Source: a virus (Duplodnaviria > Heunggongvirae > Uroviricota > Caudoviricetes). From it: a DNA stretch of 64,000 nucleotides. Below are positions 3-37,668 of this stretch, piece by piece. Under the pieces are notes generated by a model. It was not told the origin of the DNA, ran no database searches, and saw only the letters and a program-made list of their open reading frames with translations. Each line of letters opens with the position of its first letter. Within the stretch, counting starts at the first letter, position 1. The position numbers were made by a program, and so were the translations under genes. The stretch is taken from positions 1 to 64,000 of IMG/VR virus record IMGVR_UViG_3300047552_001889; one strand, 5' to 3'.

Positions 3-620
3 ATGGAAAATTGTATTAAATTTCGAGGAAAGATTTTGTTCGACCCAGAGGAGATTACAAACAAGCAAGAACGTCAATCTGAGTGGAAGAAGTTTGCCAT
101 GGTTATGCTTGAGCCAGGGCTTTCCTCTAAGGAAAAGGGCATCACAGAATACTATGCCTGGCTCTTCAGAAAGAGATTTAATCTACCACTTCACAAGCCC
201 TTGAGAGGCGCTCATGTTACCATTATTAATGATAGAGAATCTGAAACAAATGGTAAGTGGGAGGAAGTTAAGGCTAGGTGGGATGGAAAGGAAATTGACA
301 TTTACTTGAATGTGGACCCATTTCTAGGAATTAAAAATAGAATGGGTAACTATGTTGACTGGTGGCTAACTGTTCCATATGAGTATCGAGATGAGCTTGG
401 AGCTATTAGAATGGAGCTTGGGCTTCCAGCTAGGCCATACTTCGGCTTCCACATGACAATTGGAACTGCTATAAACTTCTACCCAAAGACTGGCGAAGGA
501 ATAAACGCAACAAAGGCTAAGGGTATGTTTGAGGAGTATTCCAGATACATCATAGAAATGGCTCAGAGTGACTTATTAAACCTTGGCGAGATGCCAGAAC
601 ATAATAGTAAAGCAAATTGA
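3..620 (+). CDS. 2H phosphoesterase superfamily protein (LigT/cyclic phosphodiesterase-like)
   Basis: Two H-x-T-x motifs (GAHVTII and FHMTIG) about 85 aa apart, typical of 2H cyclic phosphodiesterases and LigT. The ORF begins at the window edge. Confidence 0.5.
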   Translation: MENCIKFRGKILFDPEEITNKQERQSEWKKFAMVMLEPGLSSKEKGITEYYAWLFRKRFNLPLHKPLRGAHVTIINDRESETNGKWEEVKARWDGKEIDIYLNVDPFLGIKNRMGNYVDWWLTVPYEYRDELGAIRMELGLPARPYFGFHMTIGTAINFYPKTGEGINATKAKGMFEEYSRYIIEMAQSDLLNLGEMPEHNSKAN

Positions 621-838
621 TGGAAGAATATAGACCAAAGGACGAAGAGTGTCCATCTCAAGAATTTGACTATGGAAAACCTAGTGGAGGATGCTGGGGA
701 GATGGTCACTACATGTGTGAAACCTGCAGGCATTTTAGAAAAGATTTTGTCGGAGAAAAAGGAATTCAAAAAAGAAGTGATTTACTAGCTATGCAAGGTA
801 TGCCTGGTATTGCAATTAAAATAGGAACTATAAAATGA
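617..838 (+). CDS. small Cys-rich hypothetical protein
   Basis: 73-aa ORF whose start is ATGA-coupled to the upstream gene; motif CxxxxHYMCETC. Confidence 0.3.
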   Translation: MMEEYRPKDEECPSQEFDYGKPSGGCWGDGHYMCETCRHFRKDFVGEKGIQKRSDLLAMQGMPGIAIKIGTIK

Positions 839-2010
839 AAATAAGTGTAAATGATATTCGAACTCTCCCATCAAGTATGGGATTTGGGTTCTGTGTATAT
901 GGTGAGCCAAGTGAGATAATCACTAAGTGGGCTAATCGTTGGGGATTTAGAATAGTCTCTGGAGAAGGGGGATATACAAACATTATTGTCCCTAAGAACT
1001 ATGACATTTCAGAGTGTTTTGAGCCGTTTGTAGAATATAGCTATGTTGATGGATTTAGCCCAAATCTTAACAAGCACCTGCACATTGGGCATATGTCCAA
1101 CTTCATAATAGCCAAAACCTTTCAGTCAATGGGTGTTGGGCGTGAGTTCATATCCATTCTGGGAGATACTCTTGATGGTGGTGTTGAAAAGGGTGAGGCA
1201 TATAATATGTATCGAAAGTATTGTGAAGAATTTGGTCTTGATATATCTCAAATCTTCTACGCCTCTCACATGACCTATACTGGAGATAAGTTAGAAGATG
1301 GAGAGGGTGATTATTCTGGAACAAAGGTTTTTAATACTGGTAGTGAGAAGATAGTCGGCATCAAGAGTGATGGCTCAACAAGTTACTTCTATCAAGATAT
1401 GGCTCTTGCAGAGATGTTAGGTGATTCAACCCTATACTTGACAGGTCATGAGCAAGATAACCACTTTAAGGCCTTAAAGGAATTCTATCCGCAAACAAAT
1501 CATGTTGGATTGGGTCTTGTTAAGGTTGGTACAAAGATGTCTAGTCGAGATGGGAATGTAATTTTCTTCTCAGACCTGATTGAAGAATGTCTTGAGGAGT
1601 TTGATAACGACCTAGAGCTTGTATATAACGTTCTTGCTGGGTTCATACTAAAGATTGAGCCAACAAAGGATAAAAATATTAACCTTAAGCTACTAAAGAA
1701 TCCTAAGAACTCTCCTGGGCTTTACTTGTCGTATACACTTGCTCGACTAAAGAGTGCTGGCGTTAAAGGATTAGAAACAGATGAGTTCAATAGTACAGAG
1801 CTACAATTCAAATATTTAAAGTCTCTTCATAATCTGCAGCCAAATATCCTGTTCAATGCACTTATTGAACACTGCAAGTTAATCAACAACTTATACTCCA
1901 AGTTCAAAATTGAGGGACATCCAGAAAATGAGGTAATGTTCAGCAATTTGAAGGAGGACTTAGAGTTAGGAATGAGCAAGTTAGGATTATTCTTGATAGA
2001 TAAGGTGTAA
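835..2010 (+). CDS. truncated class I aminoacyl-tRNA synthetase paralogue, ArgRS-like
   Basis: HIGH motif in SPNLNKHLHIGH (compare ArgRS SANPTGPLHVGH). The KMSKS position is GTKMSSRDGNVIF, which matches the ArgRS MSTRxG variant. LYLSYTLARLKS resembles the ArgRS DALR anticodon-binding domain. At 391 aa it is about 180 aa shorter than canonical ArgRS. Confidence 0.45.
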   Translation: MKISVNDIRTLPSSMGFGFCVYGEPSEIITKWANRWGFRIVSGEGGYTNIIVPKNYDISECFEPFVEYSYVDGFSPNLNKHLHIGHMSNFIIAKTFQSMGVGREFISILGDTLDGGVEKGEAYNMYRKYCEEFGLDISQIFYASHMTYTGDKLEDGEGDYSGTKVFNTGSEKIVGIKSDGSTSYFYQDMALAEMLGDSTLYLTGHEQDNHFKALKEFYPQTNHVGLGLVKVGTKMSSRDGNVIFFSDLIEECLEEFDNDLELVYNVLAGFILKIEPTKDKNINLKLLKNPKNSPGLYLSYTLARLKSAGVKGLETDEFNSTELQFKYLKSLHNLQPNILFNALIEHCKLINNLYSKFKIEGHPENEVMFSNLKEDLELGMSKLGLFLIDKV

Positions 2011-2065
2011 AATATTTGCACAGTTATTAATTTATCACTAATTTTGAAACGAACAAATCAAGGCT

Positions 2066-3450: not shown

Positions 3451-4002
3451 ATGAGTGAGCAAAAGAGAATATCAGAGTGGCTGACAACAGCTGGAGTGGA
3501 AAGTCCAAAAACTCCACAATTCCCCGCAAGTGATAAATTACAACTTGCGCTTGGATTGGTACTTGAAGAATTGTTAGAAGCTGCTGAATCAGCTTCAGAT
3601 GAAGACGCAAATAAATTCTTTGATGAGGTTATTCGAGCGGCTACCATGGCTAAGTTTAACATGGTTGGTAGAAACAGAAATGAAGGTGACTTAACTGAAC
3701 TTAGAGATGCTTGTGCAGACCTAAGAGTGGTTATGGGTAATCTCATTCACTTCGCTGGAATACAAGAGCAATTTGAAGAAGACTTTGCTGAGGTCATGGA
3801 TTCAAATTTCTCTAAGTTCTGCTCAACAGAGCAAGATGCTATGTACTCTGTAGAAGCGTATGCTAAGGGAACTCACCCAAATAAGATGGGTGAAGTAATC
3901 GAGTGTTACTATGAGAAGGTTGGAAACTACTGGATTGTTAAGAGAAAATCAGACAACAAGGTTCTTAAGTCTATTGGATTTAAGGAGCCAAATTTTAAAT
4001 AA
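3451..4002 (+). CDS. hypothetical protein, possible MazG-like all-alpha NTP pyrophosphohydrolase
   Basis: Acidic helices LVLEELLEAAE and DACADLRVVMGNLIHFAG give a weak resemblance to the MazG EExxE / DxxxD core. Confidence 0.3.
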   Translation: MSEQKRISEWLTTAGVESPKTPQFPASDKLQLALGLVLEELLEAAESASDEDANKFFDEVIRAATMAKFNMVGRNRNEGDLTELRDACADLRVVMGNLIHFAGIQEQFEEDFAEVMDSNFSKFCSTEQDAMYSVEAYAKGTHPNKMGEVIECYYEKVGNYWIVKRKSDNKVLKSIGFKEPNFK

Positions 4003-4018
4003 AAAAAGAGAACAAAAA

Positions 4019-4735
4019 ATGGAAAACTTAAAGAAAGATTTTGAACTTTTCGCAAGAGACAAGGGAATTTCAAGCTTGACGCTTGATGGTTATTCTAAAA
4101 TTATAAACCATAATGTGTTTATGCCGCAGTCAATAGCGCAAACTCCTTTCGCTATGACACCAAACATCATCGAAGAGAGACAGTTGAACGCTATTGCGAT
4201 GGATGTCTTTTCAAGATTGATGATGGACAGAATCATCTTCCTTGGAACTGGAATTGATGACACTGTTGCAAACGTAATCAACGCTCAGCTATTATTCCTT
4301 GAGTCTGTAGATGCTAAGAAAGACATCACGATATACTTTAACTCTCCAGGAGGAAGTGTTTACGCTGGACTTGGTATTTATGATGTTATGCAGTATGTTA
4401 AGCCAGATATTGTAACTGTTAACACGGGTATCGCAGCTTCGATGGCATATGTGCTGGCTTGTGCTGGAGAAAAGGGTAAGAGATATTCTTTGCCTCATGC
4501 AAGATACATGCAGCATCAACCTCTTGGTGGAGCTTCAGGTCAGGCTTCTGACATTGAAATTACAGCTAAGGAGATTCAAAAGCTTAAAAAAGAGCTCTAT
4601 GAGATAATCTCACTTCACACAGGTCAACCATATGATAAAATTTGGAGTGACTGTGATAGAGACCACTGGATGACAGCTAGAGAGGCAAAAGAATACGGTT
4701 GTATAGACCACATTCTTAAGGGGGCTAAGAAATAA
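4019..4735 (+). CDS. clpP: ATP-dependent Clp protease proteolytic subunit ClpP
   Basis: FNSPGGSVYAGLGIYDVM..GIAASMAYVLACAG..MQHQPLGG are canonical ClpP Ser/His/Asp-region motifs. The ATG at 4019 is chosen over the track's 3911 start, which would overlap the previous gene by 90 nt. Confidence 0.85.
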   Translation: MENLKKDFELFARDKGISSLTLDGYSKIINHNVFMPQSIAQTPFAMTPNIIEERQLNAIAMDVFSRLMMDRIIFLGTGIDDTVANVINAQLLFLESVDAKKDITIYFNSPGGSVYAGLGIYDVMQYVKPDIVTVNTGIAASMAYVLACAGEKGKRYSLPHARYMQHQPLGGASGQASDIEITAKEIQKLKKELYEIISLHTGQPYDKIWSDCDRDHWMTAREAKEYGCIDHILKGAKK

Positions 4736-4781: not shown

Positions 4782-5261
4782 ATGAAGGACGTAATAGCAA
4801 TATATCCTGGGAGCTTCAATCCATTTACCATTGGACATCAAAATATTCTTGAGAAAGCTGAGAGAATATTTGGACAAGGAAATGTAATTATAGCTGTTGG
4901 GGTAAACCCAGATAAGACAACGAGTGTTGATGACTCAAGGGTTCAAACCATCAAGAGGCAATTGACATCAAAGACTGTAGATAGCTATAGTGGCTTTTTG
5001 ACTGATTACGTCAGAGAAAAGGAATCTGAGACTGGTAAGCGAGTTGTGGTAATACGTGGTCTAAGAAATGGTCATGATTTTGACTATGAATATAATCAGC
5101 TTAGATTTATGTGGGACCAAATGCCAGAGCTTGACATTGTATGCTTATTTGCTGACCCCATTTACATGCATGTATCTTCAAGTGCTTATAGAGCCCTAGA
5201 AAAGGTTAAGACAGGTTCTGGACATAAGTATTTAGCTGTAGATAAAAATTTGGAAAAATAA
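4782..5261 (+). CDS. coaD: phosphopantetheine adenylyltransferase (PPAT/CoaD family nucleotidyltransferase)
   Basis: N-terminal AIYPGSFNPFTIGHQNIL matches the PPAT GSFDPxTxGH (H/T-x-G-H) motif; size 159 aa. Confidence 0.7.
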   Translation: MKDVIAIYPGSFNPFTIGHQNILEKAERIFGQGNVIIAVGVNPDKTTSVDDSRVQTIKRQLTSKTVDSYSGFLTDYVREKESETGKRVVVIRGLRNGHDFDYEYNQLRFMWDQMPELDIVCLFADPIYMHVSSSAYRALEKVKTGSGHKYLAVDKNLEK

Positions 5262-5267: not shown

Positions 5268-5792
5268 ATGGAAACAAAAGTAGTTGATTTTAATCATACA
5301 TATAGTCTAACTAAGGGTATGTCAATGCAAAAAAAGATGAGGTCAACACCTCTTAAGGATTGGCTTACAGACCCTGAACTAAAGGATAGGTTATCTGGAA
5401 CTCTTAAAAAAAATGCCTCAATTGGCTTTAAATATTTAAGTCAACTTAATGAGGAAGCTCTGGCTCAGACTCTTGGATGGGGTTTTGAATCTTCTCCCAC
5501 TACGTTCATCACATTCAATGATGCGATAACTGAAGGAGATTGTCATTCATTAACAGAAGTTGGATGGCATGTTGATAGATTATTGAGTACTCATATTTTT
5601 GATGAGGACCACTTCGAGTTGAAATATATTGTTGTTCAGGACTATAATGGAAAAATAGAGAGACAAGGAATTGGCGTAGTTCTGAGAGAAACTAGCATTT
5701 CTTGGGTAATGAAGGGTCACTTAGTTTTTTCTTTATTGACTGAATATGATAGTGATAAAAAGGAGTGGACAGATTGTTTAAATCCATTTTAA
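5268..5792 (+). CDS. hypothetical protein
   Basis: ORF only. Confidence 0.3.
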   Translation: METKVVDFNHTYSLTKGMSMQKKMRSTPLKDWLTDPELKDRLSGTLKKNASIGFKYLSQLNEEALAQTLGWGFESSPTTFITFNDAITEGDCHSLTEVGWHVDRLLSTHIFDEDHFELKYIVVQDYNGKIERQGIGVVLRETSISWVMKGHLVFSLLTEYDSDKKEWTDCLNPF

Positions 5793-5793
5793 G

Positions 5794-6267
5794 ATGACTG
5801 TAGACATTAAGCCAATAGATTGCTATATTGAAGAATCATTTTTAACTAAACAAGATTCTGACGATATTTTGAAGTGTAAAATTATAGGAATTCAAGCTTA
5901 TAAAAACGCTTTTCCTACACTTCAAATATTAATTGAAGATTCTTATCTTTTTTCTGATATTCCAATTGAAATGGTTTTTCATAGAAAAGATGTTAAACCA
6001 GACAATATGATGCATCAGCATAAGAAGTGTCCATCGTATAAAATAGAGGTTTTTTACCATTCTATTTTTAAAAATAGAAAAATATCTTTCCTAAATGTAT
6101 TGAAGGGTAAGTTTATGGCTGGTGAGTATTTACTTAGTTTCGATTTTTATACAGACAATGAGATGCTTCACTTAATTAAAGGAGATGATGGTCTTTTTTA
6201 TATATCACCTAATCATAAAATTAATTGGTCAGCAAAAGAATATTTGCCTAATTTTAAAAAGATATGA
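5794..6267 (+). CDS. hypothetical protein
   Basis: ORF only. Confidence 0.3.
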   Translation: MTVDIKPIDCYIEESFLTKQDSDDILKCKIIGIQAYKNAFPTLQILIEDSYLFSDIPIEMVFHRKDVKPDNMMHQHKKCPSYKIEVFYHSIFKNRKISFLNVLKGKFMAGEYLLSFDFYTDNEMLHLIKGDDGLFYISPNHKINWSAKEYLPNFKKI

Positions 6268-6977
6268 AAATAGTATTTTTTTCCGATTCACACGGATTTC
6301 ACAATGAGATGACATTGCCAGAGACTGACATAGCAATTTGCTGTGGAGACATTTCTCTTCGTGGTCATAAGCATGAGGTTGAGAGCTTCATGGAGTGGTA
6401 CTCCAAGCAACCAGCTAAGCACAAAGTGATGATTGCTGGTAACCATGACTTTTGGTTTGAGCCAAGTCACCCAAGAAGCCCAAACCACAAGTTAAATGAC
6501 AACAGCTACCTTGACATCATTCCTGATGATATTATTTACCTTGAGAACTCTGAAGTGATAATCGAGGGTATAAAGATTTGGGGTAGCCCAGTTACACCAT
6601 GGTTTCACAGTTGGGCATTCAACATGATGCCTGAGGACCTTGAGACTTTTTGGGACCAGATTCCAGAGGATGCAGATATTGTTATAACTCATGGACCTTG
6701 CGCCAATACAATTCTTGATAAATGCAAGAGTGGTGATAGAGTGGGGTGTCCAAGCCTTACGAAGAGAATTGCTGACATACGTCCAAAGGTTTTGGCCTTT
6801 GGTCATATTCACGAGGCTTATGGAATTGATAGGAAATCTATTCCAGATGATGATGGTGTAGAGAAGGTTACAACCTTAATCAACTGCAGCGTTTTGAACC
6901 TGCAATACTACATGGCAAATGAGCCAGTTTTGGTAGATTGGGAAAAAATTTGTAAATTGCACGAAAATAAGAAATAA
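6264..6977 (+). CDS. calcineurin-like metallophosphoesterase
   Basis: MKIVFFSDSHG..GDISLRG..IAGNHD are metallophosphatase motifs I-III. Confidence 0.7.
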   Translation: MKIVFFSDSHGFHNEMTLPETDIAICCGDISLRGHKHEVESFMEWYSKQPAKHKVMIAGNHDFWFEPSHPRSPNHKLNDNSYLDIIPDDIIYLENSEVIIEGIKIWGSPVTPWFHSWAFNMMPEDLETFWDQIPEDADIVITHGPCANTILDKCKSGDRVGCPSLTKRIADIRPKVLAFGHIHEAYGIDRKSIPDDDGVEKVTTLINCSVLNLQYYMANEPVLVDWEKICKLHENKK

Positions 6978-6978
6978 G

Positions 6979-7425
6979 ATGAATAGTATTAAATTAACTG
7001 CTGAGCAAATTCAGTTTTTACATAATAATTCTGGATATGATGGAGGATTTAGAGAAGGTGGACAAGTTCTTAAGGGTTTTGAGAAGTGGTGGATTCATGC
7101 TGATGAGGATACGGGGGAATATGATGCAGGCAAGTCTTCTATGGTAAATTATGAGATAAAGCTATATAAGCCTTTGCTGGATGAGGATGGTAATGTAAGT
7201 GAAGACGATGAAGGGGTTCTTGTTGGAACAGCAATTGGTGGTTATTATAACGGAAATATAGGCCATCGTTTTAATTATAGCCTTGAATTTTTCCCTCCAG
7301 AGCCAGATACACCAGAGTCAAGATTTAGAAATTTTCTTATGGATATTGCTAAAGATAATTTAAGTATGGATAAGATGATTAATAAGATTGAGAAAGAAAT
7401 TAAAAATTTGAAAGATGCAAAATAA
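6979..7425 (+). CDS. hypothetical protein
   Basis: ORF only. Confidence 0.3.
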   Translation: MNSIKLTAEQIQFLHNNSGYDGGFREGGQVLKGFEKWWIHADEDTGEYDAGKSSMVNYEIKLYKPLLDEDGNVSEDDEGVLVGTAIGGYYNGNIGHRFNYSLEFFPPEPDTPESRFRNFLMDIAKDNLSMDKMINKIEKEIKNLKDAK

Positions 7426-7729
7426 AATTGAGAAAACACCAGAACAAAGAATTAAGAGACTTGAAGTTGCTGTAATAGCACTTTCAGTTGCATTTTTTGC
7501 GTCTCTTTTAATTTCATTCCTTGCCTATATGCAGATATTGACATTTTCAAGCAAAATTCCTGACTATAAGGAGATAAAGGAAGACATTAAGACACTTAAG
7601 GGTGCATATGATGTCGCTAAGGATAAGGCTCCAGTTGTAAAGGAGGCAGTTGTTAACAGCTATGAGTACACAAAGGAAAAGGCTGGAGACTTGGTTGACT
7701 ATTTTAAGGGTGATAAGGATGGCAAATAA
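7415..7729 (+). CDS. hypothetical membrane-anchored protein
   Basis: One N-terminal TM helix; start and stop overlaps with neighbours. Confidence 0.3.
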   Translation: MQNKIEKTPEQRIKRLEVAVIALSVAFFASLLISFLAYMQILTFSSKIPDYKEIKEDIKTLKGAYDVAKDKAPVVKEAVVNSYEYTKEKAGDLVDYFKGDKDGK

Positions 7730-8099
7730 TAATTCAAATACGAGTTCTGGAGGGGTAGGCTTCGTTGGTCTATTAACCATTTTATTCATAGCTCTAAAGC
7801 TGATGGGTAAGATAGATTGGTCATGGGGATGGGTTTTAAGTCCTGTTTGGATTTCTGCCCTTATACTTTTAGCTGTAGTTTTGTTCTTGTTTTGGCTTGA
7901 GAAGAGAATGAAAAGCAGAGCAAGGCATAAAATTATGAGAAGCAACCCAACTCCAGCACAAGATAGTAGGGGGTACTTTGAAACAATTCGACTTGACAGG
8001 AATAATAGAATGCTTAGAGTTGGTTTCGGCAAGAACAATGGGAGATGGTTTTTTAGAATAGACCTTTGGTTCTTTGGAATCAGAATTAAAAAGAGATAG
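7719..8099 (+). CDS. small integral membrane protein
   Basis: Two strong hydrophobic helices. The ATG at 7719 overlaps the stop of the upstream gene, so the track start 7650 is rejected. Confidence 0.35.
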   Translation: MANNNSNTSSGGVGFVGLLTILFIALKLMGKIDWSWGWVLSPVWISALILLAVVLFLFWLEKRMKSRARHKIMRSNPTPAQDSRGYFETIRLDRNNRMLRVGFGKNNGRWFFRIDLWFFGIRIKKR

Positions 8100-8376
8100 T
8101 ATGAAAAAGATTTTTTTGTTTCTTCTGAAGAAGTACTCGAAGAACGAGGCTGATAGGATGGAGATTTTAAAGCACCTACAAGAGGGTGTTCGTGAGGAAT
8201 ATAGAGAGCAAACTGGATATGGAAATATATACAACTTCTTTATTGAGTTTGCTATGTCAAATGACATAATAGTCGATGTAGTTAAGAAGGCTGAGCTAGA
8301 TAACTTTGAGATGATAAGAAGAGGTCTGAATAATGCTTATAACGAGGCTGCTATATTCATTGAAAAAGAGATGTAA
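8074..8376 (+). CDS. hypothetical protein
   Basis: ORF only. Confidence 0.3.
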   Translation: MESELKRDSMKKIFLFLLKKYSKNEADRMEILKHLQEGVREEYREQTGYGNIYNFFIEFAMSNDIIVDVVKKAELDNFEMIRRGLNNAYNEAAIFIEKEM

Positions 8377-8378
8377 TT

Positions 8379-8735
8379 ATGGGAATGTTTGATGCACTAA
8401 TTAATAGCAATAAGGAGCCAAAATTTGGAATGGAATACATCTACTTGCTCGATGTAGCATGGATTATAGGAACATTTGACACAGTTTCAGTTGATTTTGG
8501 ATGCATCATGACAGATGTTGTCAAGCTTCCAAATGATTCTTTTGAGTTTACTCACAAGGAAACTGGAAAAAGGTATAGAACAAACTATGGGTGGGCTCTT
8601 GCAGAGAATACTCCAGAAAATGTGGAGAGAATAAATGCATACCTAGAATCTAACAAGAAACTAAAGGAAGTTGAAAAAGAAAATAGTAGGCTTCGAAATT
8701 TAATAATTGACCTTGATGGTCCTAAAAAGATTTAA
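8379..8735 (+). CDS. hypothetical protein
   Basis: ORF only. Confidence 0.3.
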   Translation: MGMFDALINSNKEPKFGMEYIYLLDVAWIIGTFDTVSVDFGCIMTDVVKLPNDSFEFTHKETGKRYRTNYGWALAENTPENVERINAYLESNKKLKEVEKENSRLRNLIIDLDGPKKI

Positions 8736-8737
8736 AA

Positions 8738-9229
8738 ATGGAAAAAGAAAAGTTTACGTTCTTCTGGGGAGGGACATTTAGTCAGTGGGCACCTTCTAAA
8801 TTTATAATTGATGGAGTCGAGTTTAACACTTGCGAGCAGTACATGATGTACAAGAAGGCTCTTATGTTTCATGACTATGATTCTGCAAAGAAGGTTATGG
8901 AGACATCCAATCCTAAGGAGCAAAAGGCAATCGGAAGAAAAGTGAAGGGATTCAAGGATGATGTTTGGGTGAAGTATTGTCGTGATATTGTATACGATGC
9001 AAACGTTGCTAAGTTCACTCAAAACCCAAGCATGCTTAGCGAGCTTATGGCGACAAACGGAACAAGCTTAGTTGAGGCTTCTCCATATGATAAGCGTTGG
9101 GGAATTGGTCTTGGTGCAGAAAACCCATTTGCTCAAGATAGAAGTACTTGGGATGGGTTAAACTGGCTTGGTGAGGCAATTCAGAGGGTTCGTGAGGACA
9201 TTAATAGCGGAAAAATTTTAATCAAATAA
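8738..9229 (+). CDS. NADAR (YbiA-like, DUF1768) domain protein
   Basis: FFWGGTFSQW..DGVEFNTCEQYMMYKKALMFHD..KFTQNP..LVEASPYDKRWGIGLG matches the NADAR/YbiA signature (FxxFSNW, EQ, WGxG). Confidence 0.75.
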   Translation: MEKEKFTFFWGGTFSQWAPSKFIIDGVEFNTCEQYMMYKKALMFHDYDSAKKVMETSNPKEQKAIGRKVKGFKDDVWVKYCRDIVYDANVAKFTQNPSMLSELMATNGTSLVEASPYDKRWGIGLGAENPFAQDRSTWDGLNWLGEAIQRVREDINSGKILIK

Positions 9230-11439: not shown

Positions 11440-11472
11440 AAAAAGGAGGCTTAAACAGCCTCCTTTTCTTTT
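11440..11472. terminator. bidirectional rho-independent terminator between convergent genes
   Basis: AAAAAA-GGAGGCT-taaac-AGCCTCC-TTTTCTTTT; overlaps the clpB stop codon. Confidence 0.7.
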
Positions 11473-13673
11473 GTCTCAACATTATTGAATTCCAGTTGCT
11501 CTCCGTTAACTGTAACCTCTATTGTTGAATTATTTACCACCTTTCCAGAAAGTATATCCTTAGAGAGCTTTGTTAATAGCTCATCATGAATCATTCGCTT
11601 GACTGGTCTTGCTCCATATTGAGGCTCATAGCTCATTTCTGTCATCTTGGAGAATGCATCTTCACTAGCTATCAGATTTACTCCGCTTCTTGAGAGTTTC
11701 TTTTGAAGCCCTCTAAATTGAAGCTTGACAATTTCTCGTATGTTATCTCTGTTAAGATAATCAAATACGATTGTCTTGTCGATTCTGTTGATGAATTCTG
11801 GTCTTAGCTTAGCCTTAATTAGTTCGATAGCATACTCTCCAGCTTTCTTCATGATTTCTGCAGGAGTTCCAAATTCATCTGGCTCTCCAGTCTTTTCAAT
11901 ATTCTCAATTCTTTGAATTCCTGAGATTAAGGATTCGGAACCCATGTTAGATGTCATGATGATTATTGTGTTCTTGAAGTCAGCAACTCGCCCCTTATTA
12001 TCAGTTAGCCTACCATCATCAAGAACCTGCAGCAATAAATTTAGAACATCTGGGTGTGCTTTCTCAATCTCATCTAATAGGATTACACTGTATGGCTTTC
12101 TTCTTGCCGCCTCTGTAAGCTGGCCGCCTTCCTCATATCCAACATATCCTGGAGGAGCTCCGACCATTCTTGAAGCAGAGTGCTTCTCTTGGTATTCACT
12201 CATATCAATTCTTGTGACCATTGACTCATCATTAAACAAGTACTCAGCTAAGGCCTTTGCAAGTTCTGTCTTACCGACACCAGTTGTTCCAAGAAACAAG
12301 AATGAACCGATTGGTCTATTTTCACTCCCAAGGCCAGCACGATTGATTCTGATTGCATCTGAAATTACAGTAACTGCTTCAACCTGTCCAATGATTCTAT
12401 TGTGTAGCTCATCCTCAAGCGTTAAAAGTTTATCCATATCGCTTTGGGTCATCTTAGACACTGGAATTCCAGTCATCTTTGCAATAACCTCAGCGATGTC
12501 ATCAGCGTGAACTTCCTCTTGCATCATTCGAGAGTTAGAGGCCTCAAGTTCACGTAGCTTCGCAAAAGCTTCCTCAACTTGTTTTTCTGCTTGTGGTAAT
12601 TCATTGTATTGAATTTCATAGAGCTGCTTAAAGTCTTCATTATCCTTGTCTGCCTTAGAGACAAAATTCTGGAACTTATGTTTTAAGGCTTCAACTCTTT
12701 TTTTTGCCTGACTAGCACCGTCAATGATTGCTTTCTCAGCCTGCCATCTGGCATTTATCTCATCTGCCTCTTTTTTCTTGACCTTGATTTCAGCTTCTAC
12801 CTCTTTGATTTTTACCACATTCTTCTCACGCTTCATGGCTTGCAGCTCAATCTCAAGTTGAATGATTTTTCTATTCATGTCATCAACTTCATCTGGAACA
12901 GAGTTTAATTCCATTCTAAGCTTGGAGCAAGCCTCATCCATAAGGTCAATTGCCTTATCTGGAAGACATCTGTCTGTAATGTATCTGTTGGATAGTTCCG
13001 CAGCAGCAATTAGCGCATCATCCTTAATCGTAACTCTGTGGTGAACTTCAAACTTCTCCTTGATGCCTCTTAGGATGGTAATTGCCTCATCAACTCCAGG
13101 TTCATCAACAAATACTCTTTGGAATCTTCTAACAAGTGCCTTATCACTCTCAAAGTGTTTTTGATACTCGTCAAGAGTTGTAGCTCCAATCGTTCTTAAT
13201 TCACCTCTTGCAAGAGCTGGTTTTAAGATATTAGCAGCATCCATTGCCCCTTGACCACCACCAGCTCCAACCAAGATATGAATCTCATCAATAAATAGGA
13301 CAACCCTCCCAGCTGATGCAATTACTTCTTCCACAACTCCCTTAAGCCTCTCTTCGAACTCACCCTTATATGAAGCGCCAGCAATTAGAGCTGTAAAGTC
13401 AAGTTCATATATTTCGATGTCCTTAAGATTTTCTGGAATATCACCTCTAACTATTCTCTGGGCGATACCCTCAACAATAGCTGTCTTACCAACACCTGGT
13501 TCACCAACGATGATTGGATTATTTTTTGTCCTTCTTGAGATTATTTGAAGAACTCGCCTAATCTCATCCTCACGGCCTATAATTGGGTCGATTCGACCAT
13601 TCTTAGCTTTTGCTGTTAGGTTGACTGCAAATTTATCTAAGTTTCTTATTCCAGGCTCTTGCTGTTCATTCAT
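11451..13673 (-). CDS. clpB: ClpB-like AAA+ chaperone (two AAA domains, coiled-coil M-domain, no N-domain)
   Basis: Two Walker A sites (GEPGVGKTAIVEG and GTTGVGKTELAKALA), sensor/arginine-finger regions, and a ~130-aa coiled-coil between the AAA modules. It begins directly before AAA-1. Confidence 0.8.
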   Translation of the reverse strand: MNEQQEPGIRNLDKFAVNLTAKAKNGRIDPIIGREDEIRRVLQIISRRTKNNPIIVGEPGVGKTAIVEGIAQRIVRGDIPENLKDIEIYELDFTALIAGASYKGEFEERLKGVVEEVIASAGRVVLFIDEIHILVGAGGGQGAMDAANILKPALARGELRTIGATTLDEYQKHFESDKALVRRFQRVFVDEPGVDEAITILRGIKEKFEVHHRVTIKDDALIAAAELSNRYITDRCLPDKAIDLMDEACSKLRMELNSVPDEVDDMNRKIIQLEIELQAMKREKNVVKIKEVEAEIKVKKKEADEINARWQAEKAIIDGASQAKKRVEALKHKFQNFVSKADKDNEDFKQLYEIQYNELPQAEKQVEEAFAKLRELEASNSRMMQEEVHADDIAEVIAKMTGIPVSKMTQSDMDKLLTLEDELHNRIIGQVEAVTVISDAIRINRAGLGSENRPIGSFLFLGTTGVGKTELAKALAEYLFNDESMVTRIDMSEYQEKHSASRMVGAPPGYVGYEEGGQLTEAARRKPYSVILLDEIEKAHPDVLNLLLQVLDDGRLTDNKGRVADFKNTIIIMTSNMGSESLISGIQRIENIEKTGEPDEFGTPAEIMKKAGEYAIELIKAKLRPEFINRIDKTIVFDYLNRDNIREIVKLQFRGLQKKLSRSGVNLIASEDAFSKMTEMSYEPQYGARPVKRMIHDELLTKLSKDILSGKVVNNSTIEVTVNGEQLEFNNVETKEKEAV

Positions 13674-13773: not shown

Positions 13774-14745
13774 ATGCTCAATTTGCCATTTCCAGTTATA
13801 ATGAACCTTAAGAATTGTAAGAACATCCTAATTCTAGGTATGGGTGGAGGCTTCGATGTATTTGCAGGACTCCCAATATATCTAACACTCCAGAAGATGG
13901 GATTGAAGTTGCATCTTGGTAGCTACACACATGTTCAGTGGGATGCTGTAAACAATCACTCAGAGGTTATTCCAATGTCTAGTGGGTGTGTGGGAGTTAC
14001 AGGTAATATTAGACAGGCTTCTGAATTTTTCCCAGAGATGTATCTATCGAGCTACTTCAAGGATGTTAAGGGTTTGGAAGTTCCAGTTTGGACATTTAGA
14101 AGGGACCAAAGTGTGGCGGAGTACACTTCTTCCCTAGACACTCTTGTTAAGCACATAGATATTGATGCCATAATTCTAGTTGATGGTGGTGTTGACTCAA
14201 TAATGGTTGGTGATGAAGAAGGAAGTGGCACAATGATGGAAGATTCATTAAGTCTTGCTGCGGTTAAAAATGTGGATGTGCCAGTTAAGATGCTTGGTTG
14301 TGTTGGATTTGGTACGGAGACTGATGAAAACCTATCACACTATCTGGCTCTTGAAAATATTGCCAAGATAAGTAAGCAAGGCGGGTTTTATGGAACATGT
14401 AGTCTTATTTCTTTTATGGAATGCTTCAAGGAGTATAAGGCGATTTGTGAACACGTTTGGAGTCAACCAAATCATAAGAAAAGTCACATTCAAACAAAGG
14501 TTATACCTTCTGCAGAAGGTGAGTTTGGAGATTATCACATGTTTCCTATGGAGAAGAGAAAGGATGCGTTTATTTCACCTCTTAGCAGTATTTATTGGTT
14601 CTTCAATGCGCAGGCATCAATTTATAATAACATCGTGATTCCTGTCATTGAAGAGAAGGATACGTTTTTTGACGCAGTTCAAGTTGGAGTGCCGATGATT
14701 AAGAATTTTGTAAAGAGACCAAGGAGAGAGATTCCATTAACATAA
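13774..14745 (+). CDS. conserved hypothetical protein with GxGGGxD and VDGGxDS motifs
   Basis: ILILGMGGGFDVFAGLPIY and AIILVDGGVDSIMVGDEEGSGTMMEDSLSL resemble an uncharacterised archaeal/bacterial family (possibly DUF1152-like); function unknown. Confidence 0.4.
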   Translation: MLNLPFPVIMNLKNCKNILILGMGGGFDVFAGLPIYLTLQKMGLKLHLGSYTHVQWDAVNNHSEVIPMSSGCVGVTGNIRQASEFFPEMYLSSYFKDVKGLEVPVWTFRRDQSVAEYTSSLDTLVKHIDIDAIILVDGGVDSIMVGDEEGSGTMMEDSLSLAAVKNVDVPVKMLGCVGFGTETDENLSHYLALENIAKISKQGGFYGTCSLISFMECFKEYKAICEHVWSQPNHKKSHIQTKVIPSAEGEFGDYHMFPMEKRKDAFISPLSSIYWFFNAQASIYNNIVIPVIEEKDTFFDAVQVGVPMIKNFVKRPRREIPLT

Positions 14746-14750
14746 CTAAC

Positions 14751-14933
14751 ATGAAAGTATTGAAAGATATAAAAATTGCCAAAGGAATTGTTATTAAGAA
14801 GGGTGCTGATGTTGAAATGGATGGATTTGGAGACATAATAATAACCAGAGGTAAAGAATTATACATTTGGAATTTGAATACTTATGAAATAATTAATAAG
14901 GTAAGAAAGCAACATAATCTTAAACCTTTATAA
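14751..14933 (+). CDS. small hypothetical protein
   Basis: 60-aa ORF. Confidence 0.25.
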   Translation: MKVLKDIKIAKGIVIKKGADVEMDGFGDIIITRGKELYIWNLNTYEIINKVRKQHNLKPL

Positions 14934-14939
14934 AAAATG

Positions 14940-15146: not shown

Positions 15147-15148
15147 TT

Positions 15149-15177
15149 GTAACATATTTTCATTTTTTACGTATAAG
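15149..15177 (+). promoter_or_regulatory. phage promoter GTAACA-N17-TATAAG
   Basis: gtaaca-tattttcattttttacg-tataag, 30 nt upstream of the SPFH gene ATG. Confidence 0.55.
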
Positions 15178-29482: not shown

Positions 29483-30112
29483 TTGGATATGAGTTTAAAA
29501 TCATATAATATTCAGAACAAGGGAGACGTATCAAAGATTGTTGAGGGTTGTAAGAAAGGGGACAGAAAGATGCAACAAATTCTGTTTGAGCTTACCTATG
29601 GTAAAAGTATGTCTGCAGCTCTTAGATACTCTCCAGATAAGGCTTCCGCAATGGATGTTGTAAGTGACTCATATCTAAAGGTTTTTTCTAAGATAGACAC
29701 TTTTGATGAAAGTGGCAGCCTTGAGGGTTGGATTAGAAGAATTGTTGTTAACACAGCAATTGATGTTATCAGAAGAAATAAGGGAATTTACTTTGAAGAT
29801 GTTCAAAACGCTGAGGATGTTGGTCTAAATTTAGAAAACAACTTTATGGTTGATGGGCTTGAGTCCGCAGACCTATCTCCAGACGAGGTTATGGATATAA
29901 TTCAAAAATTGTCTCCAGGATATAAGGCGGTATTCAATATGTTTGTATTTGAAGAGATGAGCCACAAGGAAATATCTGAAGCCCTAGAAATATCTGAAGG
30001 AGCATCTAAGTCAAACCTATCCAGAGCAAGGAACACCATCAAGAAAGAAATAGAATTGCTGAAGGAAAAGAGTCTTAGAAGACAAGAAACAATGAAAGAA
30101 CTGTACAAATGA
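29483..30112 (+). CDS. ECF-type sigma-70 family sigma factor
   Basis: Region 2 (DVVSDSYLKVF...GWIRRIVVNTAIDVIRR) and region 4 HTH (MSHKEISEALEISEGASKSNLSRARNTIKKEI). Confidence 0.7.
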   Translation: MDMSLKSYNIQNKGDVSKIVEGCKKGDRKMQQILFELTYGKSMSAALRYSPDKASAMDVVSDSYLKVFSKIDTFDESGSLEGWIRRIVVNTAIDVIRRNKGIYFEDVQNAEDVGLNLENNFMVDGLESADLSPDEVMDIIQKLSPGYKAVFNMFVFEEMSHKEISEALEISEGASKSNLSRARNTIKKEIELLKEKSLRRQETMKELYK

Positions 30113-30588
30113 GTTGGCTATGGCCCATACCATCTGTTAAAAAGTCAATCCCAGGCAAAGATACTCAAGGATTCTTTGGTGCTGTAAGAAAGCATGACAT
30201 TCATACAGGAGTTGACATATATTGCAATCCAAATTGTAAGGTTATAGCTGTAGAGTCTGGTGTTGTTAAGCACATCGAAAACTTCACAGGTCCATCCGCT
30301 GGTTCTCCATGGTGGAGAGAAACCAAGGCTGTATGGGTTGAGGGTGACAGTGGAGTTGTTGTCTATGGTGAATTGGACCCAATCGTAAATATCGGAGACT
30401 CAATTAACGCTGGTGACACCATAGGATACGTTCAAACAGTTCTGGCAAATGATAAGGGCTTACCGATGACCATGCTTCATATTGAGCTTTACACCAAGGG
30501 TATGACTGAGACTGTTTGGTGGAGGCATGAAGAAGAAAAGCCAGAATCGTTGCTTGACCCAACGGAGTTTTTAATTAATTCAATTTAA
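30109..30588 (+). CDS. M23/LytM-like peptidase domain protein
   Basis: HTGVDIY..GVVKHIE..GDTIGYVQ..MLHIELY resembles the M23 HxxxD...HxH pattern. Confidence 0.45.
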   Translation: MSWLWPIPSVKKSIPGKDTQGFFGAVRKHDIHTGVDIYCNPNCKVIAVESGVVKHIENFTGPSAGSPWWRETKAVWVEGDSGVVVYGELDPIVNIGDSINAGDTIGYVQTVLANDKGLPMTMLHIELYTKGMTETVWWRHEEEKPESLLDPTEFLINSI

Positions 30589-31480: not shown

Positions 31481-32374
31481 ATGAAGATATTATTTCCTTG
31501 TCATGAACTAGATGGGCTTAAAAAAGTAGATGATGCATACTTGGAAGAGTATAATTCAGCAAAACTTATTGGTTTTGAATGCTTTCTTTTTGACCACGAC
31601 AAGTTTGTTCGAGGCTGTTTATCAACGAATCTAAATACTTTTGAGCAAGAGGAAACTATCATGCTTAGAAGCTGGATGCTAAAGCCTTCTGAGTACAGAG
31701 ACCTATTTGATATTATTAAGGAAGGTTATAATGCATTGCTAGTAAACAATCCTAATCAGTATATTAACTGTCATTACTTTACTGGTTCATACGAATTGAT
31801 AAAGAGTCACACTGCAAAGTCAATTTCAATCTCTCTTACAGAGCTTAATGAAGAAATGTTGCAGCATGTGTCTGATACTTTCTCTGGAAAGAGTTTCTTG
31901 ATGAAAGACTTTGTTAAGTCTGCTAAGGAAAGGCCTGAATTATTCATAATGCCAGCTGGAATCTCTGGAAAAGACCTCTTAAAGAAGGTTGAAGAGTTCA
32001 TAGAATATAGAGGAAGTCTATTCAATGAAGGAATCGTATTCAAGGAATTCGAAGAATTATATATTGATGTTGATGGAAATCTGAATGAGTGGAGATTATT
32101 CTTCATGAATGGAGACCTTGTTTCAAATAGTCCAAACTCCAACCAAAAAGAGCCGCTGATTAAGCCTTCAGATTTTTTTGTGAAAGATGTTGTATCAATA
32201 ATAGCTTCAAAGCTTGATAGCAACTTCTTTACAATTGATGTGGCAATGAAAAAAAATGGAACTTGGATGATTGTAGAGACTGGTGACGGTCAAGTATCTG
32301 GGTTATCTCCATTTCAAAACATACTTGAGTTCTATACTTCAATTCAAATGCGTCAATTAAAAAGTACACACTAA
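31481..32374 (+). CDS. hypothetical protein, possible ATP-grasp fold enzyme
   Basis: The C-terminal IDVAMKKNGTWMIVETGDGQVSGL weakly resembles the ATP-grasp E-x-N/G loop. Confidence 0.25.
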   Translation: MKILFPCHELDGLKKVDDAYLEEYNSAKLIGFECFLFDHDKFVRGCLSTNLNTFEQEETIMLRSWMLKPSEYRDLFDIIKEGYNALLVNNPNQYINCHYFTGSYELIKSHTAKSISISLTELNEEMLQHVSDTFSGKSFLMKDFVKSAKERPELFIMPAGISGKDLLKKVEEFIEYRGSLFNEGIVFKEFEELYIDVDGNLNEWRLFFMNGDLVSNSPNSNQKEPLIKPSDFFVKDVVSIIASKLDSNFFTIDVAMKKNGTWMIVETGDGQVSGLSPFQNILEFYTSIQMRQLKSTH

Positions 32375-35281: not shown

Positions 35282-35285
35282 CTAT

Positions 35286-35521: not shown

Positions 35522-36214
35522 ATGAAATATGTAGTAATTGACATCGAGACAACAGGGGTTCCTGGAAAGGATGGGAAACTTGAAGAGCTCCAGATTATTG
35601 AGTTTGGGGCTATAATTGAGGATACAAATAATCCTCTAAGCTGGGATGATATTCCGAAGTTTAACAAGATTATACGCCATGAGCAATATAGAGGTGGAGC
35701 GTTTGCAATAAATCTTAATGCTAGGATTTTTGACATACTTGCAAAGCGTGAAAATTTTAAGAGAAACGAAAGAGGTGAATACGATTCACATCATGGGATT
35801 ATTGAGCTTGGTGACCTTGCAAAAGAGTTCTTCGATTTTTTAATTCCTCATCTTGGGAAGTTTAAAGATGATGAAAGTTTTGAGTCGGCATTGTCTAATT
35901 CTGACATTTATAGACAGGCCCCTCTGACGATTACTCCAGCTGGTAAGAACTTTGATGCATTTGATAGGAAGTTCATCGAGCTTATACCAAAGTGGGATAG
36001 CTACGTAAGACTTAGACATAGAACTCTCGACCCTACAACTGCTTATGTTGACTGGTATGTTGATGAACAGCCTCCAGGTCTTGGAGATTGCCTACAGAGA
36101 GCTGGAATAATTAAGCAAGTATCTCACTGTGCTGTTGAGGATTGCTGGGATACTCTTGAAGTGCTAAGAAAAGAATATTCAATTCAGAAGCCATGGATGA
36201 AAAAGCAAATGTGA
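35522..36214 (+). CDS. DEDD-family 3'-5' exonuclease
   Basis: VVIDIETTG (Exo I) and IIEFGAI are present, with a C-terminal H/Y-x(4)-D-type motif (HCAVEDCWD). Confidence 0.55.
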   Translation: MKYVVIDIETTGVPGKDGKLEELQIIEFGAIIEDTNNPLSWDDIPKFNKIIRHEQYRGGAFAINLNARIFDILAKRENFKRNERGEYDSHHGIIELGDLAKEFFDFLIPHLGKFKDDESFESALSNSDIYRQAPLTITPAGKNFDAFDRKFIELIPKWDSYVRLRHRTLDPTTAYVDWYVDEQPPGLGDCLQRAGIIKQVSHCAVEDCWDTLEVLRKEYSIQKPWMKKQM

Positions 36215-36597
36215 GTAATGTAGCTCAAAACATTATAGATTTAGCAACTGGATTAGTTGGGGAGTTCTTATTTAAAGAAATTTCTTATAAGAGTGAATAT
36301 TCAACAGAATTAATTTTCTGTAAAAAAAATGAAGAGCTAAATTTAGAAAAAAATTTTTATAAATTTTCAATCACTTCAACAGATAAGTGGAATTCTGTTT
36401 TTTTGATATGTCTTGAATATGTTGAAATAATTGATATTGATAAGTGGCCTTATAAACGTTATTTTGGAACATATCAAGAAATTCAAAATTTTGATAAAAT
36501 AGTTGAATTATTGAGTGAGCATAATTATAATTTTGCTGACAACATTTTATACGCTTATAATAAAGTAATTGAAAAGCAAAAAGAAAAAAGAAAATAG
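36193..36597 (+). CDS. hypothetical protein
   Basis: ORF only. Confidence 0.3.
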   Translation: MDEKANVSNVAQNIIDLATGLVGEFLFKEISYKSEYSTELIFCKKNEELNLEKNFYKFSITSTDKWNSVFLICLEYVEIIDIDKWPYKRYFGTYQEIQNFDKIVELLSEHNYNFADNILYAYNKVIEKQKEKRK

Positions 36598-36600
36598 TAT

Positions 36601-37668
36601 ATGACACAAGTAAAGAAAATAATTAAGTACCCAAGCACTGAGCAATTCAGAACCATTGTTAAGACCGTTAACGAGCGCACCGCATTCGTTGGTCTTGATG
36701 AGAATGGTAAGGCAATGTACGACCCATCAATCAAGAAGCCAGTTCTTAAGTTCAAGGGAACTGTTAAGATTCATGGAACCAACGCTGGTGTTTCTTACAA
36801 CAATTCTCATGGAATGTGGGCTCAGTCTAAGGATAATATCATTACTCCAGAGAAGGATAACTATGGGTTTGCGTTCTTTGCACACTCAAATGAATTCTTC
36901 TTTGTTCAAGCTCTTTCTGAGTTCGCTAAGAAGCATAATATTGACCTTGATGAGAACACAATCACTGTTTACGGTGAGTGGGCTGGAGAGTCTATTCAAA
37001 AAGGAATGGGAATCTCCAATATCCCAAAGTCTTTGTTTGTTTTTGGTGTTAAGGTTTCAAGGCCAGGAGATGAGGACTTCCAGTCATTCTGGATTGATGC
37101 CTCAGATTTCCCAGTAGATGAAGATAGAAGAATCTTCAATATTCATGACTTTGAGACATACGAAATTGAGGTTGACTTCAATAGGCCAGATGTTGCTCAA
37201 AATCAGATGATTGAGATTATGACTCAGGTTGAGAACGAGTGTCCTGTTGCTAAGGCTTTCGGTCACGTTGGAATTGGAGAGGGTAATGTTTGGACTGTTG
37301 AATTCAAGGGTCATACATACAGATTCAAGGTTAAGGGCGAGAAGCACGCTGGAAAGACAAAGGTTAAGACTTTGAAGGCTGTTGACAGCGACAAAATCAA
37401 TAAGATTCATGAGGTTGCTAATAAGGTAACTCCTGCGTGGCGATTAGACCAGATGTTAACTCAGGCTTGTAATATTGGTAACGGTGGAAACATTGATAGA
37501 GCAAAGCTTGGTGATTACTTGAGACTTGTTATTAACGATGTCATCAAGGAAGAGTCTGACATTATCGCTGAAGCTGGTCTTGAGCCGAAGGATGTAAATA
37601 AGTATGTTTCTCAAATTGCCAGAGAATACTTCTTCGACAGAGAGAAGGAAGACCTTGGTGTTAACTAA
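36601..37668 (+). CDS. RNA ligase, Rnl2 family
   Basis: Motif I KIHGTNAG matches T4 Rnl2 KIHGTN (ligase lysine), and YGEWAGESIQKG matches T4 Rnl2 FGEFAGPGIQK (motifs III/IV). Confidence 0.7.
   Translation: MTQVKKIIKYPSTEQFRTIVKTVNERTAFVGLDENGKAMYDPSIKKPVLKFKGTVKIHGTNAGVSYNNSHGMWAQSKDNIITPEKDNYGFAFFAHSNEFFFVQALSEFAKKHNIDLDENTITVYGEWAGESIQKGMGISNIPKSLFVFGVKVSRPGDEDFQSFWIDASDFPVDEDRRIFNIHDFETYEIEVDFNRPDVAQNQMIEIMTQVENECPVAKAFGHVGIGEGNVWTVEFKGHTYRFKVKGEKHAGKTKVKTLKAVDSDKINKIHEVANKVTPAWRLDQMLTQACNIGNGGNIDRAKLGDYLRLVINDVIKEESDIIAEAGLEPKDVNKYVSQIAREYFFDREKEDLGVN

Follow-up and report, generated by a model that had tools for sequence, protein, structure and literature searches.

A loose candidate repertoire for tRNA maintenance in a 64-kb segment of a huge-phage genome

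The first 64,000 nucleotides of the IMG/VR record IMGVR_UViG_3300047552_001889 (positions 1 to 64,000, referred to here as the window), from a member of the Caudoviricetes, raise the question of whether a set of tRNA-related and RNA-end-processing genes spread over phage DNA amounts to a pathway for restoring tRNAs cut by host anticodon nucleases, or to something looser. A preliminary description of this DNA had proposed the former, and had read a Thg1-like enzyme, an RNase Z-like protein of the metallo-β-lactamase fold (MBL), an Rnl2-family RNA ligase, a 2H phosphoesterase, a HAD phosphatase, a truncated arginyl-tRNA synthetase (ArgRS) and two tRNA genes as covering most of the chemistry needed. 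All six protein genes are present on the + strand in the list of open reading frames (ORFs) (Table 1), and profile hidden Markov model searches supported the Thg1, RNA ligase and ArgRS assignments, whereas the HAD protein was left without any profile match and the cut-offs for RNase Z failed. The reading favoured here, with a probability of roughly one half, is a loose repertoire for maintaining the tRNA pool through supply, charging and end repair, of a kind typical of huge phages, rather than a demonstrated pathway against anticodon nucleases. It is preferred because the RlaP, YqeY, 2H, ArgRS and MBL genes are contiguous, because repair-type neighbours recur in relatives and because codon usage fits the tRNAs.

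The window is approximately 36% G+C and densely coding, mainly on the + strand. Two segments of it gave no match in a megablast search against 50,697 phage records, leaving no GenBank phage near at the DNA level. The nearest protein matches to the Thg1-like, HAD-like and ArgRS-like queries came from uncultured phages of 485–642 kb (LR745206, LR745208, LR756502 and LR756504). All genomes above 634 kb reported by Al-Shayeb et al. (2020, Nature 578:425) fall in the Mahaphage clade, for which Bacteroidetes hosts were predicted. The source of the window is, judging from its predicted proteins, a huge phage related to the ~635-kb uncultured phages. The 9 kb lying 5' of the window were taken from a near-identical assembly (JGI metagenome 3300042988, contig Ga0451687_0000169, 99.99% identity), in the numbering of which position 9167 corresponds to window position 1.

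With this upstream DNA added, the left edge of the window was found to lie within a contiguous and co-directional array of genes, in the order RlaP, a 139-aa protein, a 380-aa protein, YqeY, 2H, ORF73, mini-ArgRS and MBL. The RlaP nucleotidyltransferase (570 aa; PF10127, 1.8e-22; upstream assembly 5336–7048) is encoded just upstream of the window, and the YqeY-domain protein (upstream assembly 8663–9082) directly 5' of the 2H gene in the same direction. ORF73, for which no Pfam or PHROG match was found, overlaps the 2H stop with its start and the mini-ArgRS start with its stop, giving stop/start codon overlaps at both junctions. The block of RlaP, YqeY, 2H, ORF73, mini-ArgRS and MBL is the sole part of the set whose arrangement suggests co-expression. 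The gene for the 380-aa protein (upstream assembly 7465–8607), whose C-terminus is rich in Cys and His, was considered as a second Thg1-like gene given a Pfam Thg1 match at E 0.004, which was taken as noise because the protein has no BLASTP similarity to the Thg1-like protein of the window.

The most original element of the set is the ~392-aa mini-ArgRS family, which is widespread. The window member matched Pfam tRNA-synt_1d at 2.6e-7, failed the equivalog model TIGR00456 (56 bits against a cut-off of 262) and had no Arg_tRNA_synt_N or DALR match in Pfam. An AlphaFold2 model of the protein, with a pLDDT (predicted local distance difference test) of 91, made a helical C-terminal domain visible, and the top 19 Foldseek matches to this model were all ArgRS (E ~1e-15, query TM-scores (TMq) 0.61–0.72). 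Together with the HIGH and KMSS motifs, these results uphold the truncated ArgRS-like enzyme proposed earlier. Throughout the family D72, N77, Y184 and D188 do not vary; these residues belong to the SPN and Y-x3-D segments, which could be aligned to yeast ArgRS (1BS2), and presumably correspond to the arginine-binding residues E148, N153, Y347 and D351 of the yeast enzyme. More than 589 homologues of ~392 aa were collected, with 66% mean column identity and on viral contigs of up to 675 kb, although among GenBank phages only two ~635-kb genomes carry one, and a literature search on truncated phage ArgRS returned nothing relevant. A copy identical to the window mini-ArgRS was listed on a contig of up to 140,950 bp; contigs of up to 44 kb were read. 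On the strength of the retained ATP- and arginine-binding residues, the compact ArgRS most likely aminoacylates tRNA-Arg. A more specific proposal can be offered as speculation of low probability. The ~392-aa enzyme, kept in hundreds of huge-phage contigs and translationally coupled to the 2H gene within the RlaP-YqeY-2H-ArgRS-MBL block, would be part of a 'repair-and-recharge' module, being a minimal synthetase that lacks the D-loop-reading N-terminal domain and is specialised for the phage's own or newly repaired tRNA-Arg(UCU), or alternatively would put arginyl-adenylate chemistry to a non-translation purpose.

The 2H protein carries both of the HxT motifs that mark its superfamily (two HxT/S motifs in a pseudo-symmetric fold), and the earlier assignment is well supported although the protein is divergent. 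No curated family model (2H-SAK, LigT) was passed, the 2H-SAK Pfam score being 20 bits against a cut-off of 27; a few homologues match PF22547 or PF02834, and a single-sequence search of the PDB gave no useful match.

The metal-binding motifs of the MBL protein are complete and its superfamily is certain, but the RNase Z identity first attached to it was not upheld. Both RNase Z equivalog models failed (NF000801, 58.7 bits against 252; TIGR02651, 53.9 against 293), and the 29 residues spanning H155 to D184 leave no room for the flexible arm of RNase Z, an exosite that we take, from the B. subtilis structure, to lie between the motif III His and the motif IV Asp. The extra length of longer homologues is a C-terminal extension, with no insertion between H155 and D184. 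The family profile, when searched against the PDB, placed ELAC2, ELAC1 and RNase Z behind the uncharacterised 7FCT and three structures of Apyc1 (7U2R 4.9e-17, 7T28 2.6e-16 and 7U2S 3.5e-15, compared with 1.3e-10 for RNase Z). Beyond the first ~90 residues 7FCT alone aligned, and a literature search on this entry found nothing relevant. The Apyc1-like alternative that had also been suggested thus fared better in the structure ranking, yet the Pfam Apyc1 model (PF23023) scored 27.4 bits against a cut-off of 50 (E 2.8e-6), over profile positions 3–75 only. The protein is therefore called a small phosphodiesterase of the RNase Z/Apyc1 neighbourhood, because the RNase Z models, the flexible arm and the Apyc1 cut-off all fail; within that neighbourhood it is placed slightly closer to Apyc1-type small MBLs, and it is assignable to neither family.

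These matches bear on a rival explanation in which the 2H protein is Acb1-like and the MBL protein Apyc1-like, the two degrading the cyclic nucleotide signals of CBASS, Pycsar and type III CRISPR systems and not RNA ends. The rank of the three Apyc1 structures ahead of RNase Z, the size of the MBL protein, its absent flexible arm and the Pfam E-value all fit such a role, although the Apyc1 likeness is confined to the N-terminal ~90 residues common to all RNase Z/ELAC relatives and the Pfam score falls short. For the 2H protein, the model ranks Usb1, ns2, LigT, AKAP18 and CNPase all ahead of Acb1, and the neighbours are tRNA-related, with RlaP, YqeY and mini-ArgRS in the block and, for a homologue elsewhere, an RNase P protein and HAD_SAK_2. 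As an account of both proteins the anti-signalling explanation is doubtful; it is more plausible for the MBL protein than for the 2H protein.

Outside the block, the Thg1-like protein was securely assigned (Pfam PF04446, 82 bits against a cut-off of 29.2, E 4.5e-23; PHROG 4717, 3.5e-69), as had been proposed. Its best solved relative is the Thg1-like protein (TLP) of B. thuringiensis (4KGK, 1.1e-38), with eukaryotic Thg1 at ~1e-7, and its RxDG and SDE palm motifs ('iirlDGnnfh' and 'tqSDEitl') align with those of 4KGK. It is 50% identical to the product of a gene of the 634-kb phage LR745206. Immediately 5' of the gene are a DUF1152 protein and an SPFH/Band-7 protein (13774–16170), and 3' of it an unannotated 459-aa DFP-like protein and a 353-aa protein.

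The ligase belongs to a very large family of 3134 representative clusters and was likewise borne out as Rnl2-type, through Pfam RNA_ligase (3.9e-8), PHROG 548 (1.2e-45) and a family profile that aligned with residues 35–327 of the 335-residue chain of T4 Rnl2 (2HVQ) at 3.1e-12 and so spanned the C-terminal domain. TIGR02307 failed (31.3 bits against a cut-off of 197) and a single-sequence PDB search with the ligase found nothing, the likeness being visible at profile level only. Residues K56, E126, E227, K243 and K245 are invariant or nearly so and map to the T4 Rnl2 segments KIHGTN, FGEFAG, EGYVLK and KCKNSK, where they presumably match K35, E99, E204, K225 and K227.

In the small HAD-like protein, D9, D11, T13, T48, K82/K91 and D101, corresponding to HAD motifs I–IV, are invariant in four homologues. 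Homologues are encoded by LR745206 and LR756502 (38–40% identity) and by Flavobacterium phages, whose more distant proteins, one of them 30% identical, are annotated 'HAD family hydrolase'; a pattern scan of IMG/VR found no relatives there. The motifs of the HAD phosphatase described earlier are thus present, its profile support is not, and the suggested role as a 3'-phosphatase is unproven. Kinship with HAD_SAK_2 was considered and rejected, as the protein has no similarity to the HAD_SAK_2 domain of a fusion protein encoded by a 640-kb relative. A conserved ~207-aa protein, possibly SLOG/DprA-like and bearing the motif 'CHSGGAxGSD', is encoded ahead of the HAD-like gene in the 634- and 642-kb phages; in the window this place is taken by a different ORF, of 100 aa.

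Both tRNA genes named previously, tRNA-Arg(UCU) and a tRNA with anticodon CAU, were confirmed by ARAGORN and Rfam. Neither encodes CCA, the discriminator A being followed by CAA, and 3' processing and CCA addition are therefore needed. AGA makes up 64% of the Arg codons of the window genes and ATA 27% of the Ile codons. The CAU tRNA carries C4:G69 and C5:G68, which we take to be present also in E. coli tRNA-Ile2, and for this reason may decode AUA rather than AUG. Downstream of the tRNAs lies an ORF-free stretch of ~295 nt (61817–62110) with a TTGACA-like element near 62013 and no Rfam match.

Codon usage of this kind favours a second rival explanation, that of translation supply only. The tRNAs, the mini-ArgRS, the tRNA-binding protein and the Thg1-like protein would then make and charge tRNAs for AT-rich codons, the last for example by adding G-1 to a tRNA-His encoded elsewhere in the genome, while the ligase and phosphoesterases would be unrelated and no defence repair would take place. 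The maturation that tRNA genes without CCA require, the occurrence of the mini-ArgRS between two other aminoacyl-tRNA synthetases (aaRS) in one relative and the proposal of Al-Shayeb et al. (2020) that huge phages charge their own tRNAs are in keeping with it, and the phage ArgRS is explained no less well by supply and charging than by repair. Nonetheless, the Thg1-like protein is far nearer to the TLPs of bacteria, a group noted for template-dependent repair of 5' ends, than to the G-1-adding Thg1; ARAGORN found no tRNA-His in the window, and RlaP, 2H and Rnl2 are hallmark repair families. Supply as the whole explanation is accordingly judged unlikely.

Gene neighbourhoods in other phages were compared next to those of the window. 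The order 2H/mini-ArgRS/MBL/ClpP/CoaD-like/Metallophos/NADAR is retained in relatives at 70–80% protein identity, which at that level reflects relatedness and not functional linkage. More distant homologues were variable in their surroundings. One 2H homologue (~45% identity) on a 201-kb contig belongs to an array of RNase P protein, HAD_SAK_2, a 126-aa ORF and 2H; a second (~45% identity) has an AAA_33 kinase on one side and an HD protein on the other, and a third has no telling neighbours. In one relative a mini-ArgRS homologue (~55% identity) has a CCA-adding enzyme, 2H-SAK, a PF09414 RNA ligase and Metallophos alongside, and in the 640-kb relative it lies beside a HAD_SAK_2-tRNA_bind fusion and a Pol-beta nucleotidyltransferase. 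One further homologue is flanked on either side by another aaRS of unusually small size (381 and 393 aa), and another has unrelated neighbours. The fusion and the RNase P/HAD_SAK_2/2H array tie SAK-type phosphatases and the 2H family of the window to tRNA. Around the mini-ArgRS, linkage is recurrent but loose. For Thg1-like genes, true clustering was seen in Vibrio phage D69, where a nucleotidyltransferase, a Thg1-like protein, an Rnl1-type ligase and Pnk lie within 8 kb, and those of 201phi2-1, FADO and PMBT8 have no repair neighbours.

The claim that the genes cover most of the chemistry for rebuilding cleaved tRNAs fails for want of a 5'-kinase. Anticodon nucleases of the PrrC, RloC and colicin types leave 2',3'-cyclic phosphate and 5'-OH ends, and sealing by an ATP-dependent ligase therefore needs a 5'-kinase. 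No polynucleotide kinase was found from 9 kb upstream to 10 kb downstream of the window, the remaining genome not having been seen and a kinase there being possible. The only Walker A proteins within the window are the ClpB-like chaperone, RecD2 and the dephospho-CoA kinase CoaE, and the sole P-loop match among the Pfam-scanned genes of the 9 kb upstream is a 482-aa AAA ATPase. A hidden kinase was also considered 3' of the window, where the sole P-loop protein in 10 kb resembles RadA/KaiC and not Pnk. Because no kinase is present, 5'-OH ends from metal-independent anticodon nucleases could not be sealed by Rnl2 with these genes alone.

This gap is one of several points that weigh against the favoured reading or the pathway first proposed. 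Rnl2 enzymes, as exemplified by that of T4, favour nicks in duplex RNA over anticodon loops, and the phage ligase is of this type and not of the Rnl1 type used by T4 on anticodon loops. The set is dispersed among unrelated functions, and no repair-type gene adjoins those for the ligase, the Thg1-like protein and the HAD-like protein in the window. The HAD-like protein had no match in Pfam, NCBIfam or the PDB, profile searches included, and the MBL protein is no farther from the cyclic-nucleotide-degrading Apyc1 than from RNase Z. Against the pathway first proposed, the ArgRS and the two tRNAs are more simply explained by codon supply, given the predominance of AGA among Arg codons. Lastly, in a tblastn search of 40 distant IMG/VR mini-ArgRS loci, homologues of the set were found within 10 kb in 2.6% of query-locus cells, compared with 1.3% for control genes of the window; the matches were concentrated in a small number of related loci, and the 40 loci do not represent independent lineages. 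Conserved linkage is not claimed, because the enrichment is weak and confounded by shared ancestry.

Taken at their strongest, such observations would suggest no system at all, merely unrelated nucleic-acid enzymes grouped together as they could be in any 64-kb slice of a phage of several hundred kb. Over the 37 kb that the genes span, they are interspersed with genes for Clp protease, CoA synthesis, sigma factors, NAD functions and peptidases, and both the weak enrichment around mini-ArgRS loci and the isolated Thg1-like genes of other phages agree with this explanation. Set against it are the contiguity of the left-edge block and the recurrence of repair-type neighbours in independent contexts, and this explanation is considered unlikely.

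Under the favoured reading of a loose tRNA-pool repertoire, each gene would have a place, the substrates, like any link to an anticodon nuclease, being those we infer from the assigned domains. The tRNA-Arg(UCU) and the CAU tRNA would serve the very AGA- and ATA-rich genes of the phage, with charging by the compact ArgRS and a Trbp111-like protein present. In end repair, the Thg1-like polymerase would rebuild 5'-truncated acceptor stems, the 2H phosphoesterase would open 2',3'-cyclic phosphate ends and the Rnl2-type ligase would seal 3'-OH/5'-P nicks, with the RlaP nucleotidyltransferase just upstream of the window placed in the same group. Help may come from the HAD-like, calcineurin-like and small MBL phosphoesterases, and RNA turnover may fall to the RNase II/R and DEDD-type exonucleases. 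Iyer et al. (2021, Viruses 13:63) and Al-Shayeb et al. (2020) assigned Rnl2, 2H, Thg1, stand-alone HAD, calcineurin-like and RlaP proteins and phage tRNAs to phage RNA/tRNA repair, and the former listed calcineurin-like domains among jumbo-phage RNA-end phosphatases. Of the original anti-anticodon-nuclease reading, the match of these families to published repair stands, and a link to any particular anticodon nuclease does not; as a whole that reading is a sensible one that claims too much.

Were the genes to work in this way, the phage would supply, charge and mend tRNAs alone, blunting host defences that starve it of tRNAs. Such repertoires have already been described for giant phages in the same two papers, and because the idea is published for jumbo and huge phages the window mainly adds one more example. 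It also provides divergent enzyme candidates for biochemistry. The compact ArgRS is a possible minimal synthetase scaffold and could show which ArgRS domains are dispensable, and the 2H and MBL proteins would serve well for testing how RNA-end healing can be distinguished from immune-signal degradation.

Three genes of the repertoire were absent from the preliminary description, namely those for the tRNA-binding protein, the calcineurin-type metallophosphoesterase and the RNase II/R-type exoribonuclease. The first is 51% identical to the C-terminal half of the HAD_SAK_2-tRNA_bind fusion of the 640-kb relative, and the last is encoded 2 kb 5' of the ligase in the same direction. DEDD-type exonucleases are also encoded inside the window.

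Table 1. Protein and tRNA genes of the candidate repertoire, in window coordinates
Feature	Length	Position	Strand	Motifs, matches and remarks
Divergent 2H phosphoesterase	205 aa	3..620	+	HxT motifs H71-V-T and H150-M-T
Conserved ORF73, function unassigned	73 aa	617..838	+	72-aa gene called at the same place in two related assemblies
Mini-ArgRS	391 aa	835..2010	+	Class I catalytic core, H83-I-G-H86, K234-M-S-S, helical C-terminal domain, short N-terminal region
Small MBL-fold phosphodiesterase	280 aa	2066..2908	+	H80xH82xD84H85, H155, D184, H212/H224, H244-H245
Calcineurin-type metallophosphoesterase, possible RNA-end phosphoesterase	237 aa	6264..6977	+	Pfam Metallophos 7.2e-11
Stand-alone tRNA-binding protein, Trbp111/EMAP-like	115 aa	11074..11421	+	Pfam tRNA_bind 9.5e-10
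Bacterial-type TLP	329 aa	16173..17162	+	Extra C-terminal tail of ~65 aa
Putative cap-less HAD-like hydrolase	140 aa	27539..27961	+	Motif I F8-D-F-D-G-T-L; T48, K82/K91, D101
RNase II/R-type 3'-5' exoribonuclease	650 aa	32803..34755	+	Pfam RNB 5.7e-117, CSD2, S1
Rnl2-family ATP-dependent RNA ligase	355 aa	36601..37668	+	Motif I K56-I-H-G-T-N; E126, E227, K243, K245 conserved
tRNA-Arg(UCU)		61593..61667	+	ARAGORN; Rfam 70.2 bits
tRNA with anticodon CAU, elongator Met or Ile2		61741..61816	+	ARAGORN; Rfam 64.8 bits

The remaining genes of the window are of varied function. Three scattered genes, a CoaD/PPAT-like gene (4782–5261; TIGR01510, 95 bits against a cut-off of 103), a DFP/CoaB-like gene (17544–18923; PF04127, 7e-7) and a clear dephospho-CoA kinase, CoaE (59636–60250; PF01121, 2.4e-42), may constitute a phage-encoded late coenzyme A (CoA) pathway. 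Protein quality control and peptidases are represented by ClpP (3911–4735), a ClpB/ClpC-like double AAA+ chaperone (11451–13673, - strand), an oligoendopeptidase F (M3) homologue (41633–43393) and an M23 peptidase (30109–30588), and transcription by a group-1-like sigma-70 with regions 1.2–4 (22862–23767, - strand) and an ECF-type sigma factor (29483–30112). A NADAR domain protein (8738–9229) and a Sir2-family protein (45975–46700) point to functions linked to NAD+ and ADP-ribose, and domains with such links were tied by Iyer et al. (2021) to counter-defence and NAD-dependent RNA repair. Host-like enzymes at 21437–22324, 31481–32374, 50217–52231 and 58071–59642 comprise a sulfotransferase, an R2K-clade ATP-grasp protein, MazG-like and dCMP/cytidine deaminase proteins and a PcfJ-like protein. 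In the upstream assembly, a PP2C, a protein-kinase-like gene, a DUF3268 zinc finger and an AAA ATPase lie farther 5' of RlaP.

Each of the better-assigned enzymes can be set beside a characterised counterpart. The mini-ArgRS is like canonical ArgRS (yeast 1BS2/1F7U, E. coli 5YYM) in its fold, in the HIGH motif and MSxR/KMSS loop, in the aligned arginine-binding positions and in the helical C-terminal domain, but has 391 residues in place of ~550–610, with the N-terminal additional domain cut to ~65 residues and shorter insertions in the core. For the Thg1-like protein the counterpart is 4KGK, the TLP of B. thuringiensis, to which its residues 5–205 align (E 1e-38) and whose catalytic RxDG and SDE motifs it keeps; the phage protein differs in its ~65-residue C-terminal tail and in being phage-encoded, with an activity that is predicted. 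In the ligase, the nucleotidyltransferase and C-terminal domains both align with those of T4 RNA ligase 2 (2HVQ) and the motif I lysine and motif III, IV and V residues are kept, although the relationship is at profile level only and TIGR02307 gives 31 bits against 197. The MBL protein has the metal motifs, the ~250–280 aa size and the lack of a flexible arm of Apyc1 (7U2R, 7U2S, 7T28), and both Apyc1 and RNase Z (1Y44) resemble its N-terminal 90 residues; it stands apart from both in failing the family cut-offs, in a conserved 21-aa N-terminal extension and in a C-terminal half that aligns well only with 7FCT.

At the level of systems, the repair of tRNA-Lys by T4 Pnkp and Rnl1 against PrrC is similar in that a phage end-healing enzyme and an ATP-dependent RNA ligase could restore a cleaved tRNA. 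The T4 system, however, has Pnkp and Rnl1, whereas here the kinase is missing over the DNA searched, the ligase is of the Rnl2 type and the genes are not adjacent; healing, performed in T4 by the phosphatase domain of Pnkp, would fall to the separate 2H, HAD-like or calcineurin-like proteins. The closest parallel is the repertoire of jumbo and huge phages (Iyer et al., 2021; Al-Shayeb et al., 2020), in which Rnl2, 2H, stand-alone HAD, calcineurin-like and RlaP proteins, sporadic Thg1, tRNAs and aaRS are likewise scattered. From this the window differs as a new genome with its own combination of genes, in which the 2H, HAD-like and MBL proteins fall below curated cut-offs and the ArgRS is unusually small.

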